The translations under genes and the position numbers were made by a program. The notes below the pieces were generated by a model, which searched no databases, was not told where the DNA came from, and was given only the letters and a program-made list of their open reading frames with translations. A DNA stretch of 64,000 nucleotides from Candidatus Calditenuis fumarioli. GTDB lineage: Archaea; Thermoproteota; Nitrososphaeria_A; Caldarchaeales; Calditenuaceae. The stretch lies in the NCBI GenBank assembly GCA_030059665.1, contig JANVYR010000001.1:39203-103202 (forward strand). Reading direction: 5' to 3'. The number at the start of each line of letters is the position of its first letter. Position 1 is the stretch's first letter. This document shows positions 37,402 to 48,748 of this stretch, piece after piece.

Positions 37402-37425
37402 TCGAGGAAGGAGCTCCGATCCGGC

Positions 37426-37499
37426 GGCCGTCGTCTAGCCTGGTAGGACGGCGGGGCCCCGGCCCGCAGATCCCGGGTTCAAATCCCGGCGGCCGCATA
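37426..37499 (+). tRNA. tRNA, anticodon CCC (Gly?), 74 nt, no intron; atypical anticodon loop
   Basis: Manual cloverleaf:
- Acceptor gcggccg/cggccgc, U8.
- D-stem gtct/ggac with a GG-containing D-loop.
- Anticodon stem gcggg/cccgc with loop gcCCCgg.
- T-arm ccggg-ttcaaat-cccgg, discriminator A.
Position 33 is C and position 37 is G, both unusual, so the isotype is tentative. Coordinates are plus or minus 2 nt. Confidence 0.6.
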
Positions 37500-37567: not shown

Positions 37568-38938
37568 ATGCTTAAAGATGAGCAAACAAGGAGTGCGAAA
37601 TGGATGTCGGAACGAGAAGTAGACCGAAGGCGACACGAATTAAAAGCAAAGAAAGCAAGGGAATTAAAACCAGATAAACTAACGTTAGAACCTCGAAGGA
37701 TCTACGTAAAGGACTTCGGCCCTATCAGGGAGGCTGATATTGAGTTGGGTAAGTTAACAATACTCATGGGACCGAATAACACAGGCAAGACCTTTACAGC
37801 TGCGCTGATACCTGCTCTAGAAGGTCTGATCATTAGCCTAACAATTATTGCAAGTGTGCCAATTTTCAAGTCTGATGAAAAGGAATATGAAAGATTTCTC
37901 AAAAACAGATTTAATGAGATTGTAATTAACATATATTCGGTTGATGATCCGAGACAGCTTATCAGACGAGGTTCTGATAATACAGTTTTAAGCTATTGGT
38001 TAAGTCCTATTGAAGTTTTGAAAGGAGATCACCAATTAAAAATAGAGTTCGATAGAACAGGTGGGATGACTTTTGATTTAGATGGGCTTAGGGAGTTGAT
38101 CAATAATAAAATAGCCCCCCTGTTATCTCCTGTTGTTTTCATACCTGCCGAGAGGGCAGGAATAATGAGGACCTACAAGCAGCTGCTCAGACTTCACTTA
38201 GAGACGAGCTGGTCTTTTGTTCCTCCATCGCTCAGGCAAAAGGTCGTGGAACTGTTAGGCAGCAAAGTGCGGCTTCCTGGACTCGTGAGGATGCTACTTG
38301 ACGAGATACTCAGCATAGAGAGGTTCACCTTAGAGGAACGGCAGAGGTCCGATGTAGGAGGAGCACTAGAAGTGCTGGAGGAAGAAGTTCTGCGAGGAAG
38401 GTTAGAAATGGGGGAAGACCTTTCGGTAAAGTATCACGAGGCGGCAGCTGAGAACCCAATAGACCTGATTAATGCATCCTCCATGGTATCCGAAGTCTCA
38501 GCAATCTACCTGCTGTCTGGAATGTTGAGACGCGGCGGGTGGCTAATCATCGAGGAACCGGAGGCCCATGTCCATCCACGGGGACAGATGGGACTGGCCA
38601 GGTTCATGGCCAGGCTGGTCCGACTCGGCGTGAACGTCGTTGCCACCACCCACAGCGACCTGATAGCGCTCAAGCTGGCGCAGATGGTCGGCCTCGCCAA
38701 ACTAAGCCCAGAGCAGCGGCGCAGTCTCGGGTACCGGGAAGACGAGTACCTCCAGAAGGACGAGCTCGCCCTTTACTTCTTTGAGCCGACGGAGAGCGGC
38801 TCCGTGACAAGGAAGGTGGAGGTCTCGGAGACCGGTGAGGTGGAGGACCTACCAACATATTCTAGAGTTACGGAGGAGATGTACGGTGAAGCCGTCAAAT
38901 TGCTCGAGCTTCATGGGAAAATTCCAAAACTACCTTAA
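37568..38938 (+). CDS. AAA_15/AAA_21-family SMC-like ABC ATPase (OLD/PtuA/GajA/AriA-like ATPase subunit of defence systems)
   Basis: 456 aa, or 444 aa if it starts at the internal MSEREV at 37604, which sits about 28 nt downstream of a TTAAAG TATA-like element. Motifs:
- Walker A: GPNNTGKT.
- Q-loop-like: FIPAERAG.
- Walker B / D-loop: WLIIEEPEAHVHP.
- H-loop: VVATTHS.
- A long helical insert between the ATPase half-sites. Confidence 0.7.
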   Translation: MLKDEQTRSAKWMSEREVDRRRHELKAKKARELKPDKLTLEPRRIYVKDFGPIREADIELGKLTILMGPNNTGKTFTAALIPALEGLIISLTIIASVPIFKSDEKEYERFLKNRFNEIVINIYSVDDPRQLIRRGSDNTVLSYWLSPIEVLKGDHQLKIEFDRTGGMTFDLDGLRELINNKIAPLLSPVVFIPAERAGIMRTYKQLLRLHLETSWSFVPPSLRQKVVELLGSKVRLPGLVRMLLDEILSIERFTLEERQRSDVGGALEVLEEEVLRGRLEMGEDLSVKYHEAAAENPIDLINASSMVSEVSAIYLLSGMLRRGGWLIIEEPEAHVHPRGQMGLARFMARLVRLGVNVVATTHSDLIALKLAQMVGLAKLSPEQRRSLGYREDEYLQKDELALYFFEPTESGSVTRKVEVSETGEVEDLPTYSRVTEEMYGEAVKLLELHGKIPKLP

Positions 38939-39317
38939 ACACAGAAGCTCGGACCTGCAGTTTTACGACTTCGAGAACGCAGTGTTAACTGTGAACGGCG
39001 TGGAGAAAGCTAAGGGCGGGTGCGACTATGCCGTATTATCAAACGAAGGGGAGAACTGCAACCTCATACTCGTTGAGTGCAAGCGCGGACGACTTGGGGT
39101 AAGAGATTTCGAGCAAGGGAAAGCGCAGCTAGAGTGTGGGATCCGCTTCATTTTCAACGCGTTCGGCGAACCGCCTGATTTGGCGGTCCTATGCTGCGAG
39201 AAACTCGATCCTATGGTAACCAAGATTCTACAACTACCCAAAAACCAAAGATTGGTCCATAATGTCCCGCTCATCCGCAAAGGGCTAAAAGAATCCGATT
39301 GTAGATGCTGCCGCTAA
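38913..39317 (+). CDS. Small protein with a PD-(D/E)xK nuclease-like core (candidate effector partner of the ATPase)
   Basis: 134 aa from the internal M (MGKFQNYLKHR...). It overlaps the ATPase 3' end by 26 nt in a different frame. GGCDYAVLSNEGENCNLILVECKRG gives a D ... (18 aa) ... E-x-K pattern with a hydrophobic beta-strand before ExK. The C-terminus is Cys-rich (ESDCRCCR). The track ORF begins 26 codons earlier, with no ATG there. Confidence 0.45.
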   Translation: MGKFQNYLKHRSSDLQFYDFENAVLTVNGVEKAKGGCDYAVLSNEGENCNLILVECKRGRLGVRDFEQGKAQLECGIRFIFNAFGEPPDLAVLCCEKLDPMVTKILQLPKNQRLVHNVPLIRKGLKESDCRCCR

Positions 39318-39383
39318 TGAGATTCGACCTCTTTCTCACTCTCGTGCACTTCAACCGGAAATCTCAACTCGTAGAAATCGTTG

Positions 39384-39472
39384 AGCCCCGGGAGGGATTC
39401 GAACCCTCGACCACCGGCTCACCCGGATCAGGGTCATACGAGGCCGGCGCTCTACCGCTGAGCTACCGGGGC
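39384..39472 (-). tRNA. tRNA-Thr (anticodon CGU) with a 17-nt intron after position 37
   Basis: Minus-strand cloverleaf: acceptor gccccgg/ccggggc, U8, D-arm gctc-agcggta-gagc, anticodon stem ccggc/gccgg with loop cuCGUa + intron tgaccctgatccgggtg + a, variable tggtc, T-arm gaggg-ttcgaat-ccctc, discriminator U. Total 89 nt. Confidence 0.7.
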
Positions 39473-39493
39473 CCTCGGCCGTATCGCCCTACC

Positions 39494-39509
39494 AGTTTGA
39501 ATTTAACCC
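39494..39509 (-). promoter_or_regulatory. Putative TATA box for tRNA-Thr
   Basis: The minus-strand sequence gggttaaattcaaactgg is centred about 30 nt upstream of the tRNA 5' end. Confidence 0.45.
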
Positions 39510-39518
39510 TCAGCCCCG

Positions 39519-39953
39519 TCAACGCCGTCTGGGCCTCGAGAGCCCCCAGCTGACCTTCTTCTCAGGAACAAGCTTGATCACCACCGCCTCGCCCTCGTCC
39601 CAGGGGTCGGCCCGGGCCCACTCGAACCTCTCGTAGAACACCTCCGAGACCCTCCTGAACTCCTCTCCGGAGGTCAGAAGCTCGACGGGCCCCTCGACGA
39701 GGACTGCCCTGTTGGGCTTGTAGACGTCGACGACCAGCGCCGCGTAGGGGTTCCTCTCGAGGTTCCTGTGCTTCTTGGTTCCGGGATCCGTGACCATGTA
39801 GAACGCGCCGTCGAGGTAGACGTAGCAGATCGGTACGACGTGGGGCCTGCACCGCTCGTCGACCGTCGCCAAGCGGCAGAGCTCCATCCTCCTGAGGAAC
39901 TCCAGCTCGGCATCCGTGAAGCTCACCGGGGCCACAACCGTCCTGCCGCACAA
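39519..39953 (-). CDS. Pyridoxamine 5'-phosphate oxidase-like FMN-binding family protein (PPOX class, possibly F420/FMN dependent)
   Basis: 144 aa. ELEFLRRMELCRLATVDERCRPHVVPICYVYLDGAFYM is typical of the PNPOx-like split-barrel family. Confidence 0.7.
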   Translation of the reverse strand: MCGRTVVAPVSFTDAELEFLRRMELCRLATVDERCRPHVVPICYVYLDGAFYMVTDPGTKKHRNLERNPYAALVVDVYKPNRAVLVEGPVELLTSGEEFRRVSEVFYERFEWARADPWDEGEAVVIKLVPEKKVSWGLSRPRRR

Positions 39954-40479
39954 CGGCCTAATACCGCTATCCCGATCCGCGGAGCCGGAAATTCCCGTTT
40001 ATTACGCGGTGGGGAAGTGCTGGGCCGAATTGTGGCTCGAGGAGTTCCGGGAGGGGATGACGCTCTCAACGCGGAGCAGAACCGTTACGCCCTCCGATGT
40101 GGACCTCTTCGCATCGCTCACTTGGGCCGTCAACCCGATCTTCCTCAGCGACGAGGTGGCGAGGTCCAGGGGCCTTCCCGGTAGGGTCGCACCGGGAGCG
40201 CTGACCCTCTCCTACGCGATCGGCCTCCTCTACCAGACCGGAGTCTTCGACCACATACAGGCGCTGACCAGGATATCGGAGGTCGAGTTCAAGTCTCCCG
40301 TAAGGCCTGGCGACGAGATCTCGGTCGAGGCCGAGGTGGTTGAAGTCAGGGAGGTGAGGCAGGACGCCGGTGCGGTCACTTTGAGGTTCAGGGTGCAGAA
40401 CCTCAGCTCCGGAAGGACCTCGCTGACCGGGTCGCTAACCGTCATCGTCCTCAAATCGAGGCCGCAGGGCTCTAAGTGA
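39916..40479 (+). CDS. MaoC-like (R)-hydratase/dehydratase, hotdog fold
   Basis: 187 aa. RTVTPSDVDLFASLTWAVNPIFLSDEVARSRGLPGRVAPGALTLSYAIGLL is the MaoC dehydratase signature. The start is uncertain: it could be at an internal GTG, or the ATG at 39916 overlapping the divergent gene by 38 nt. Confidence 0.65.
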   Translation: MKLTGATTVLPHNGLIPLSRSAEPEIPVYYAVGKCWAELWLEEFREGMTLSTRSRTVTPSDVDLFASLTWAVNPIFLSDEVARSRGLPGRVAPGALTLSYAIGLLYQTGVFDHIQALTRISEVEFKSPVRPGDEISVEAEVVEVREVRQDAGAVTLRFRVQNLSSGRTSLTGSLTVIVLKSRPQGSK

Positions 40480-46456: not shown

Positions 46457-48367
46457 TCAGTCGCCTGCGAGGTGGATTGAGTCCAGGTTCTTCGGCGCGT
46501 ATATCGAGGCCCCGGGCACGACCTTCCGTGCGACCGAGGAGATCGATCCGACCGCCTCCGGCTCGCCGTGGACGAAGACCAGGTTCCTCGGCTTCGGGCT
46601 GACCCGCTTCATGTAGGCGATCAGCTGCTGCCTGCTCGAGTGCCCGGAGAAGCCCTCGATCTTCTCGACCTGCATGCGAACCGTCAGCGGCTCGTACTTC
46701 CCCTCCTCGTTCATTATCTGGACCTCCCTCATCCCCTTCAGTATCTTCCGGCCGAGGGTACCCTCCACCTGGTAGCTCACGAAGAGGAGCAGGTTCCGCT
46801 CGTCGCCGCAGAGCTTCCTGAAGTAGGACAGCACCGGCCCTCCCTCCATCATGCCCGACGTCGCGAGGATCACCGCTGGCTCCCTCGACTCCAGGACCTC
46901 AGCCCTCTGCTGCGGGCTCCTCACCAGCGTGAAGTAGTCGGAGAGGAAGACGTTACCGACCTCAGCCATCTCCTTCTGCAGCCTCGGCGACATGTACTCG
47001 GGGAACATCATGTGGATGGCCGTCGACTCGATCAGGAGGCCGTCCGCGAATATCGGGACCTCCCTCAGCTTCTTCTCCTCGAAGAGCCTCCTGAGCACCA
47101 GCATCACCTCCTGGGCCCTTCCCACCGCCGGCACCGGCATCAGCACCTGACCTCCCCTCTCGACGGTGCGGGAGATGTGCTCGCCCAGCAGCCTCACCGC
47201 CTCCTCCCTGGTGTAGGGCACAGGCGTGGCTCCGTAGGTGCTCTCCATTATCAGCGTCTCCATCCGGGGGAACTTCGTCACCGCAGGCCCGAGCATCTCC
47301 GTCTCCTCGTACTTGAAGTCCCCGGTGTAGACCACGTTGTAGAAGCCCTCGTCGAAGTGGAGGTGGGCTATGGCGGAGCCTATGATGTGGCCCGCGTTGT
47401 AGAACGTGAGCCTGATGTCCGGGGTTATGTTGGTCACCACGCCGTACTTCAGGGTGGTGACGTACTGGGCCATCACCCTCACGTCGTTCTCGGAGTAGGG
47501 AGCCATCTCGCCCTCCTTCCCCATCAGGTTCAGGTAGTCCAGGTGCTCCATGATCATCAGCGGAAGCGTCGGCTCCGTCATGTACACCGGCCCCCTGTAC
47601 CCGTACTTGAACAGCAGCGGCAGAGCTCCGTGGTGGTCCATGTGGGAGTGCGTGATGACGACCGCGTCGAGCTCGTCTATCAGTTCAGGCCGCGCATCGA
47701 AGCGTGGGAAGGCCTCGGAGACCCTCGAGGCGCCTGCATTTATCCCTGCGTCGAGCAGGACCTTGCTCTCCTTCGTCTCCACGAGGACGCAGGAGCGGCC
47801 GACCTGTAGGCCTCCGCCGAGGAAGGTCAGCCGGACCTCGTTCCCCTGGAGGATCCTGTCCCGGAAGACCCGCTCGCCGATGGAGCGGAGGATCTCGAGC
47901 CTCTCGGATCCAGCGCCGTAGATGTACTTCCTGACCTTCTCCACCGTGGTGGAGGTCATCGGCGGCTCCCTGTTGACGACGACCACCCAATTGAGCCTCC
48001 GCTCGAGCTCCGAGATGACCGACTCGTCTATCGGGACCACGACGTCCCTCGTCTTTATCGTGAGCACCACCTCGCCCAGCTCCTCGTCTATCCTGAGCGA
48101 GTACTGGTGTCCGGAGAAGGCCTCCGCGACGGCCCTCTCCACTTCCTCCCGGGGTGCCCTGATGGACGGGTCGGGCCTGACGATCACGCGCTTCTTGATC
48201 AGGTTGACCAGCTCCCGCGCTATCCTGTTCCTTTCGGCGAAGACCTCCGGCCTGTCGGTGTATATCGCTATCCGGGGCCCCTCGAAGTCGAGCTTCGTCG
48301 CTACCCTCTGGCCGTTCCCGATCGTGGCTAGATACCGGAATATCTCGTCCCTGAGCGCACTGAACAT
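46457..48367 (-). CDS. Archaeal CPSF1 homolog (aCPSF1): beta-CASP / metallo-beta-lactamase ribonuclease with N-terminal KH domains
   Basis: 636 aa. Two KH-like N-terminal modules, an MBL HxHxDH motif (ITHSHMDHHG), and beta-CASP and RMMBL C-terminal motifs. Confidence 0.9.
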   Translation of the reverse strand: MFSALRDEIFRYLATIGNGQRVATKLDFEGPRIAIYTDRPEVFAERNRIARELVNLIKKRVIVRPDPSIRAPREEVERAVAEAFSGHQYSLRIDEELGEVVLTIKTRDVVVPIDESVISELERRLNWVVVVNREPPMTSTTVEKVRKYIYGAGSERLEILRSIGERVFRDRILQGNEVRLTFLGGGLQVGRSCVLVETKESKVLLDAGINAGASRVSEAFPRFDARPELIDELDAVVITHSHMDHHGALPLLFKYGYRGPVYMTEPTLPLMIMEHLDYLNLMGKEGEMAPYSENDVRVMAQYVTTLKYGVVTNITPDIRLTFYNAGHIIGSAIAHLHFDEGFYNVVYTGDFKYEETEMLGPAVTKFPRMETLIMESTYGATPVPYTREEAVRLLGEHISRTVERGGQVLMPVPAVGRAQEVMLVLRRLFEEKKLREVPIFADGLLIESTAIHMMFPEYMSPRLQKEMAEVGNVFLSDYFTLVRSPQQRAEVLESREPAVILATSGMMEGGPVLSYFRKLCGDERNLLLFVSYQVEGTLGRKILKGMREVQIMNEEGKYEPLTVRMQVEKIEGFSGHSSRQQLIAYMKRVSPKPRNLVFVHGEPEAVGSISSVARKVVPGASIYAPKNLDSIHLAGD

Positions 48368-48517: not shown

Positions 48518-48622
48518 TGCCGGGGGTGGGATTCGAACCCACGACAACCGCGTCTCCCATCGAACCCGATTATGAGCGCGGCCCTGTGGCCGTGAGCCTC
48601 TGGCCAGCTGAGGTACCCCGGC
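48518..48622 (-). tRNA. tRNA-Met (anticodon CAU) candidate with a 17-nt anticodon-loop intron and an extra 14-15-nt insertion between D-arm and anticodon stem (possible second intron)
   Basis: Minus-strand sequence:
- Acceptor gccgggg/ccccggc.
- D-arm cctc-agctggcca-gagg.
- Anticodon stem ccgcg/cgcgg with a perfect elongator-Met loop cuCAUaa, interrupted by about 17 nt.
- T-arm gtggg-ttcgaat-cccac.
Total about 105 nt. The 14-15 extra nt after position 26 are unexplained, so the structure is provisional. Confidence 0.5.
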
Positions 48623-48748
48623 CGATCAGGAGTTCCTCCGACCCTACTCATTAACTTACACTGGACCGAACTCCGACCACCAGCACGCGGAGCCGTGTTC
48701 GGGGCATGAGGAGTCGCCGCCTGGTCACGGCCCGGTGAAAGGCGCGCC

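Follow-up and report, generated by a model that had tools for sequence, protein, structure and literature searches.

Results

The tRNA-Met locus and its surroundings

The window, which is the whole stretch of 64,000 nucleotides that we analyzed (G+C content of 63%), carries on its minus strand a tRNA-Met(CAU) gene of 105 nt, composed of three exons and two introns (Table 1). The gene for FttA, the archaeal KH/beta-CASP transcription termination factor, lies directly downstream. Upstream are the genes for the haem-copper oxidase subunits I and II, followed by those for a V4R-domain protein and an aconitase-family protein. The same contig is found in a Logan assembly (SRR24079435_2393) and in a JGI metagenome (Ga0105162_1000585). 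By sequence identity the host is Candidatus Calditenuis (Calditenuaceae, Caldarchaeales, formerly "Aigarchaeota"); its FttA is 93–94% identical to the proteins of Candidatus Calditenuis sp. and of a Calditenuaceae genome, and ~81% identical to those of other Calditenuaceae/Caldarchaeales MAGs.

The tRNA-Met gene is not found beside FttA in the relatives, two of which have a CRISPR array at this place. In Ca. Calditenuis sp. PSP.bin.8 (L002), the array upstream of FttA comprises at least 12 copies of the repeat GTGATCCCGAGAGAGGGAGTTGAAAG, and L003 has a variant of this repeat. In the window, the segment GTGATCCGGCGAATGGGAATTGAGAG, located 15 nt downstream of tRNA-Met, matches the repeat at 20 of 26 positions, a match that was reached in none of 20 shuffles with up to 7 substitutions allowed. 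The segment appears to be a remnant of a CRISPR array that has since disappeared.

Two further tRNA genes of the window are listed in Table 1. The tRNA-Thr(CGU) gene has a 17-nt intron, UGACCCUGAUCCGGGUG, at the 37/38 site with a strict bulge-helix-bulge (BHB) motif, and is labeled 'tRNA-???' by ARAGORN in default mode. The tRNA-Gly(CCC) gene was called by ARAGORN and is absent from the Rfam gathering-threshold scan of the whole window. The 2-kb bin with tRNA-Thr (38001–40000), about 500 nt downstream of tRNA-Gly, drops to a G+C fraction of 0.555, against 0.60–0.66 elsewhere. A splicing-endonuclease domain was looked for in 10 small window ORFs, and none of them contained one.

Table 1. Features of the tRNA-Met(CAU) gene and its neighborhood (window coordinates).
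Feature	Coordinates	Strand	Content	Basis
tRNA-Met(CAU), whole gene	48518..48622	minus	105 nt, identical in L001 and L029	ARAGORN, piece extraction, exon-anchored pattern
Exon 1	48600..48622	minus	23 nt, positions 1–22 including 20a: acceptor 5' strand, U8 A9, D-stem 5' strand CCUC, D-loop AGCUGGCCA, G22	Register scan, extraction
Intron 1	48586..48599	minus	14 nt, AGGCUCACGGCCAC, at 22/23 in the D-arm (likely register)	Register scan, MFE fold, group A conservation
Exon 2	48571..48585	minus	15 nt, positions 23–37: AGG (finishes the D-stem), G26, anticodon-stem 5' strand CCGCG, loop CUCAUA	Spliced-product call, extraction
Anticodon CAU	48574-48572	minus	CAU	Inside exon 2
Intron 2	48554..48570	minus	17 nt, AUCGGGUUCGAUGGGAG, at the canonical 37/38 site	Register scan; clean indel in group A
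Exon 3	48518..48553	minus	36 nt, positions 38–73: A38, CGCGG, variable loop UUGUC, GUGGG UUCGAAU CCCAC, acceptor 3' strand, discriminator A	Spliced-product call, extraction
Promoter-like box	48648..48657	minus	AAGTTAATGA, TATA-like core TTAAT	-35 to -26 from the mature 5' end
FttA	46457-48367
CRISPR-repeat-like segment	48477-48502	minus	GTGATCCGGCGAATGGGAATTGAGAG	20/26 match to repeat
tRNA-Thr(CGU)	39383-39472	minus	17-nt intron at 37/38	Strict BHB
tRNA-Gly(CCC)	37424-37497	plus		ARAGORN

Anatomy of the gene and its predicted spliced product

The gene reads, with slashes at the predicted splice junctions, GCCGGGG-UA-CCUC-AGCUGGCCA-G / AGGCUCACGGCCAC / AGG-G-CCGCG-CUCAUA / AUCGGGUUCGAUGGGAG / A-CGCGG-UUGUC-GUGGG-UUCGAAU-CCCAC-CCCCGGC-A. 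The coordinates of each piece were confirmed by sequence extraction. A pattern anchored in the exons matched the window once and matched none of 100 shuffles. The locus has every element of a tRNA: an acceptor stem of 7 bp, a D-arm, an anticodon stem of 5 bp with a CUCAUAA loop, a T-arm and the discriminator A. The initial annotation, which proposed a tRNA-Met(CAU), had drawn the acceptor, the D-arm, the T-arm and the anticodon loop by hand; its estimate of about 31 nt beyond a standard tRNA is exact (17 + 14). The gene does not encode CCA, and the trailer begins with GAAUUUG. No tRNA was called at this locus by ARAGORN with its default settings, nor by Rfam, whether at gathering thresholds or, for the local region, at E<=10, and in a sister lineage the standard tools report a truncated or mis-registered tRNA-Met.

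Upon removal of both blocks, the resulting 74-nt RNA was called as tRNA-Met(CAU) by ARAGORN without the intron mode. It folds into a standard cloverleaf with 7+4+5+5 perfect pairs (21 of 21 stem pairs), and possesses U8, A14, G18G19, U33, a 5-nt variable loop and the UUCGAAU T-loop. We enumerated all BHB candidates in the manner of SPLITS and evaluated every pair of them. The pair 22/23 and 37/38 was the only one that yielded a perfect cloverleaf; the other solutions listed gave an indeterminate anticodon, a Tyr(AUA) anticodon or a product of improper size, or took away part of the tRNA body. Among those rejected, the pair (66,83) excises the 3' strand of the anticodon stem together with the variable loop, and the alternative (19,30), with an 11-nt intron after position 19, leads to a poorer tRNA and forms no BHB in a variant of the gene from a related lineage (A1, see below).

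The promoter-like box has counterparts of the form A(A/G)GTT(A/T)ATGA at the same distance from the gene in all orthologous loci of this related lineage (group A), despite the divergence of the flanking sequences. The position and the preservation of the box suggest that it functions as the promoter.

Two BHB motifs, one strict and one relaxed

Both blocks were subjected to a register scan for a 4-bp central helix (H) with a 3-nt bulge on the 3' side of each of its strands, the cut being placed after the second base of the bulge, and for the outer (h) and inner (h') helices. A search for BHB motifs at both sites had been proposed in the initial annotation, and the motif can form at each. The two introns share the core of the motif, a 4-bp helix between two 3-nt bulges on opposite strands, with symmetrical cuts.

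The 17-nt block shows this geometry in the 37/38 register only, the canonical position to which it had been assigned at the outset. The central helix is formed by CUCA (positions 32–35) with UGGG, flanked by the bulges UA/A and AG/A. The inner helix, UCG/CGA, closes a GGUU loop, and the outer helix is the anticodon stem. With H 4/4, h 7 and h' 3, intron 2 has the strict hBHBh' form.

The 14-nt block attains four of four H pairs in a single register, with the cut between G22 and A23. The D-loop residues G18 G19 C20 C20a (48605-48602) pair with GGCC of the intron (48591-48588), and the bulges AG/A and AC/A are of 3 nt each. The outer helix consists of C16-G25 and U17-G24 (h = 2, one pair being G.U), and the inner helix is a single G:C pair that closes a 5-nt loop. 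The strict form demands at least 2 bp in both h and h'; h' is 1 in the window and in variant A1, and reaches 2 in variant A2 only. Intron 1 is thus of the relaxed BHB form and comes near to a bulge-helix-loop.

The sequence by itself does not fix where the 14-nt block begins and ends, since AGG stands both at its start and immediately after it, such that the registers from 22/23 to 25/26 all give the same mature RNA with G26. It is the BHB geometry alone that supports the exact register; we consequently regard the placement of intron 1 at 22/23, in the 3' strand of the D-stem, as likely rather than secure. The earlier reading of a 14–15-nt insertion right after position 26 holds for the 14-nt insert and not for its placement: the register 26/27 (tcacggccacaggg) would give C26, with zero of four central-helix pairs, and position 26 is a purine in the homologues that naturally lack introns.

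How much weight the motif bears was assessed with random or shuffled 14-mers at the site of intron 1, of which 2.1–2.6% gave an equally good BHB. The motif alone is suggestive of an intron, not proof of one. At 37, 70 and 80 °C alike, the minimum-free-energy (MFE) fold contains the GGCC/GGCC helix. By nearest-neighbor energies, the strict two-bulge conformers lie ~11–13 kcal/mol above the MFE at 37 °C; the undisputed canonical BHB likewise differs from the MFE register.

Orthologues share intron 1 and differ in intron 2

A scan of metagenomes with an exon-anchored, gap-tolerant pattern, in which the acceptor and T arms were held fixed, returned 23 loci, corresponding to 12 distinct sequences. 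Nine syntenic orthologous contigs of a related lineage, with two sequence variants (A1 and A2), constitute group A. They share the order COX2-COX1-tRNA, and on the contigs that hold the flanks COX1 is 84–86% and aconitase 91–94% identical to the window proteins. The exons of group A are those of the window except at the pair 30:40, which is G:C in group A and C:G in the window, a compensatory change in the anticodon stem as we assigned it.

The 14-nt insert is retained at the same site in group A, as AGGCCGACGGCCAA or AGGCUUUCGGCCAA, compared to AGGCUCACGGCCAC in the window. This conservation, together with the possible BHB and the restored cloverleaf, bears out the second, non-canonical intron that the initial annotation had raised as a possibility. 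Within intron 1, AGGC, C8, GGCC and A13 are invariant, and the variation is confined to the loop (UCA/CGA/UUU) and one bulge base. The four variable columns correspond to the loop (28, 29), the weak inner-pair position (30) and the bulge (37). No change affects H, h or the closing pair of h' in any of the three variants. Pairs in these three sequences were counted after removal of intron 2, as MAFFT placed the 17-nt gap 2 columns off when whole precursors were aligned. The pair statistics are not significant, with 172 of 500 shuffles reaching the score; the helices of intron 1 are backed by conservation and not by covariation.

Intron 2, by comparison, is missing from the group A orthologues as a clean 17-nt indel, and the gap falls exactly at the junction predicted for splicing. 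We aligned the spliced forms of the window and group A genes with five tRNA-Met genes of other lineages that are naturally free of introns. In this alignment, 99.3% of the cells were paired, and compensatory changes were found at four pairs (10:25, 28:42, 29:41 and 30:40). The covariation score was reached by none of 500 shuffles, the acceptor and T arms being fixed by the search pattern.

The non-canonical intron 1 is therefore shared between lineages and the canonical intron 2 is lineage-specific, the reverse of the usual assumption about their ages. Homologues of COX1 at 63–76% identity have no tRNA after COX1, and the gain or loss of intron 2 is consequently not polarized. In all sequence examined, no further copies of intron 1 were found outside of tRNA-Met genes; hence, there is no sign of intron transposition. 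[quoted passage not shown]

Other inserted tRNA genes were encountered in these searches. A tRNA-Met(CAU) of another lineage (L013 683-777, minus strand) has a ~21-nt insert, AGGGTATAGTCATCCCTAAAT, near 24/25 in the D-stem. A strict BHB for this insert fits no register that restores the tRNA; it may represent a relaxed motif. The tRNA-Met genes of group B (L010, L015, L016, L019, L020, L022 and L030) contain a 19-nt intron in the anticodon loop, which forms a 4-bp helix with 3-nt bulges in the 38/39 register and without an adjoining outer helix, a shifted variant of the canonical motif. On L021, the 3' end of tRNA-Met recurs as an imperfect copy of 30 nt (TTGCCGTGGGTTCGCATCCCATCCCCGGCA, 2340-2369), which lies 16 nt past the complete gene and looks like the att-like scar of an element that integrated into the tRNA. 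Four 95-nt tRNA-like genes (GCGGCGG...CCGCCGC; L016 5198-5292, L019 9864-9958, L020 1928-2022 and L030 7988-8083) carry an insert in the anticodon region, and the ARAGORN calls for them conflict (4-base anticodons, Leu or Pro).

Identity of the tRNA

The product has CAU in a 7-nt loop with U33, class I architecture and the discriminator A73, as does an elongator tRNA-Met. Initiator tRNAs are marked by A1:U72 and by three consecutive G:C pairs at 29-31:39-41. The product has G1:C72, and its anticodon stem, CCGCG/CGCGG, is without the three-G:C run; it is clearly no initiator, as judged by these positions. A tRNA-Ile2 of the same structure, in which C34 would be converted to agmatidine for the reading of AUA, would also present a CAU anticodon, and the CUCAUAA loop is common to the two kinds of tRNA. 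The acceptor stem, GCCGGGG/CCCCGGC, resembles what we take to be the type of the archaeal elongator tRNA-Met, and archaeal tRNA-Ile species begin with GGGC. We hence favor the elongator tRNA-Met as the probable identity and consider tRNA-Ile2 unlikely. On the contigs examined, no second elongator tRNA-Met was seen, and this gene is probably the elongator tRNA-Met of the organism. Ile2 and Met tRNAs with CAU are told apart by isotype-specific models only (PMC8450103).

Is intron 1 removed, and is the gene functional?

The two-intron structure was weighed against readings in which the 14 nt are not an intron. In one, they would persist in the mature molecule and enlarge its D-arm or form an extra hairpin, with only the 17-nt intron spliced. 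A D-stem can indeed be drawn with G22 and the first three bases of the insert (GAGG), which is how the initial annotation had it, and the energy of this conformer is similar to the others (-39.2 versus -38.6 to -40.0 kcal/mol). We know of no precedent for a tRNA with such an insert retained in its D-arm. Moreover, the insert pairs with G18G19, which the folded tRNA needs for the contact with the T-loop, and the 14 nt show a precise BHB geometry. Relatives of the same order splice introns from the D-arm (PMC3082918). This makes retention of the insert very unlikely.

We find it no more credible that the gene is a decaying pseudogene, its function lost to a 14-nt insertion or duplication in the D-arm. 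Such decay would agree with the silence of the standard tRNA finders, with the imperfect 14-nt tandem repeat formed by the insert and its flank (10/14), and with the location of the gene at a synteny breakpoint alongside the CRISPR-repeat relic. Against it, the exons are identical but for one compensatory pair across lineages whose COX1 proteins are ~85% identical, the insert varies at unpaired positions only, the promoter box is conserved, and the contigs examined showed no other elongator tRNA-Met.

An extremely unlikely reading is that of a tRNA with a single intron, in which the anticodon arm is another one and the variable region is long. The initial annotation had named a single-intron fold with another anticodon arm as what would speak against two introns, and ARAGORN -i formally produced one for the window, L001 and L029, with a 13-nt intron, CCACAGGGCCGCG, at 32/33, the anticodon stem CACGG/UCGGG and a variable region of ~20 nt; the fold itself fails. 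Both an A.G mismatch and a G.U pair occur in its anticodon stem, and its 'variable arm' has two pairs only and is mostly unpaired. The 17 nt that provide the 3' strand of this stem are missing from group A, which contradicts the fold: the orthologues fold only with CCGGG/CCCGG, and the compensatory change at 30:40 favors the CCGCG/CGCGG stem in the window. A class II tRNA would have a paired variable arm, an intact 5-bp anticodon stem and conservation of both, and the model fell short of this. tRNA-Met is a class I tRNA, and to our knowledge a 20-nt variable region is unknown for it. ARAGORN can model one intron only, and we regard its single-intron model, with a mismatched stem and undrawable on the orthologues, as an artefact.

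Even taken jointly, the single-intron fold, the pseudogene and the retained insert are quite unlikely. We consider it highly probable that the locus is an active gene for an elongator-type tRNA-Met(CAU), which two protein-spliced introns divide into exons of 23, 15 and 36 nt.

Proposed processing of the precursor

The anatomy of the gene, the unique BHB registers, the restored cloverleaf, the conservation among orthologues and the lineage of the host are established by the comparisons above. Transcription, cleavage (the exact cut sites included), ligation and the identity of the enzyme are what we infer for the following pathway. An archaeal TATA-type promoter, located some 30 nt upstream, would drive transcription of the gene. 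The precursor would then form two independent, non-overlapping BHB motifs separated by the 15 nt of exon 2: the strict motif of the anticodon arm, which harbors intron 2, and the relaxed motif of the D-arm, in which the D-loop G18 G19 C20 C20a would pair with GGCC of the intron. A splicing endonuclease would cut each of the 3-nt bulges, with four cuts in all. By analogy to the clade, this enzyme would be the heterotetrameric (alpha-beta)2 type, whose extra loop would allow relaxed motifs; the epsilon2 type is the other one able to cleave such motifs away from the anticodon loop. The exons of 23, 15 and 36 nt would be joined by an RNA ligase, and the 74-nt tRNA would be completed by trimming of the ends and by the addition of CCA, a step that we include because CCA is not encoded.

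Discussion

Relation to known archaeal tRNA introns

Multiple and non-canonical introns, together with a relaxed endonuclease, were attributed by the initial annotation to some archaea, and are documented in the lineage of the host itself (PMC3082918, PMC5829648). In Caldiarchaeum subterraneum, introns occur in 13 of 46 tRNAs, three of which (Leu UAA, Gln CUG and Thr GGU) contain more than one; the sites include the D-, V- and T-arms, BHB motifs are present at the junctions, and the endonuclease is heterotetrameric (PMC3082918). The tRNA-Thr(GGU) of this organism has introns at 24/25 and 45/46 and shows heterogeneity in the population (PMC3293823). C. subterraneum belongs to the same order as the host of the window gene, and the two share short BHB-bounded introns (D-arm introns included), more than one intron per gene, and differences in intron presence or absence between close relatives; a heterotetrameric endonuclease has been reported for C. 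subterraneum. They differ in that the three multi-intron genes listed for C. subterraneum do not include tRNA-Met(CAU), whereas the window gene has the combination 22/23 and 37/38, in that the host here is of the genus Calditenuis, and in that no mobile element was found in or next to the window intron. A further two-intron gene was seen in group A itself, where tRNA-Gln(CUG) (L009 3157-3272, plus strand, and L018, minus strand) has a 26-nt D-loop intron (H 4/4, h' 6) along with a 17-nt canonical intron. CCA is encoded in this gene, a single base of the intron loop distinguishes the two contigs, and ARAGORN miscalls it as tRNA-Pro on one contig and as tRNA-His on the other.

Throughout TACK, Aigarchaeota included, the (alpha-beta)2 enzyme is conserved, with a 'specific loop' that makes relaxed motifs acceptable to it (PMC5829648). 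The same two-intron layout is seen in a different phylum. The pre-tRNA-Glu(UUC) of Methanopyrus kandleri likewise combines a relaxed D-region intron (HBh', at 20b/21) with a strict canonical intron at 37/38, and both are cut in vitro by a crenarchaeal (alpha-beta)2 enzyme (PMC5829648). The isoacceptor is a different one, and the enzyme of M. kandleri itself, which is without the specific loop, cuts the D-loop intron poorly. Compared to the HBh' motif of M. kandleri, intron 1 of the window still has its two 3-nt bulges, the weakness being confined to h'.

The Thermoproteales have short non-canonical introns at many positions, with the same presumed enzymology, and these too are missed by general tRNA finders. 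They have up to three introns per gene, and Pyrobaculum calidifontis has 71 introns in 46 genes (PMC8450103, PMC4033280); tRNAscan-SE 2 found 673 non-canonical introns in 217 archaeal genomes (PMC8450103). This order belongs to another class of Thermoproteota, and its similar introns recur across its tRNAs, a mark of transposition, whereas no such recurrence is seen for the window intron in the sequences examined.

A possible origin of intron 1

We also considered, as a tentative and rather doubtful reading, that intron 1 arose in place, by a 14-nt tandem duplication of a segment of the D-loop and D-stem, and not from a mobile element or by transposition. The end of exon 1 with the intron (GGCCAGAGGCUCAC) matches the following 14 nt (GGCCACAGGGCCGC) at 10 of 14 positions. 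The repeat unit opens with the palindrome GGCC, and the same 3 nt follow each copy. As the unit begins with a palindrome, two direct copies of it can pair, which would give the two-fold-symmetric helix-plus-bulge core of a BHB. Our reserve about this origin reflects the likeness of the repeats, which is only marginally above chance (an estimate of about 0.05) once the four positions required by the BHB are allowed for. Support for it would come from a sister lineage that has no intron here and carries GGCCAGAGGGCCG instead. If it is true, any duplication in a tRNA gene that starts with a 4-nt palindrome would be tolerated at once under a relaxed endonuclease, and tandem duplication would offer an easy way for new non-canonical introns to arise.

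Implications

Two-intron tRNAs are already known in Caldarchaeales, and the tRNA-Met(CAU) gene adds to this documented class a case with a D-arm and a canonical intron, with no new mechanism. As the gene is missed by Rfam and by ARAGORN in its default mode, statements on genome completeness and on the tRNA complement of Calditenuaceae MAGs need an intron-aware archaeal search. The window and group A provide a natural comparison, that of close lineages which share intron 1 and differ in the presence of intron 2 and by a compensatory change in the anticodon stem, and this comparison bears on the gain and loss of tRNA introns.
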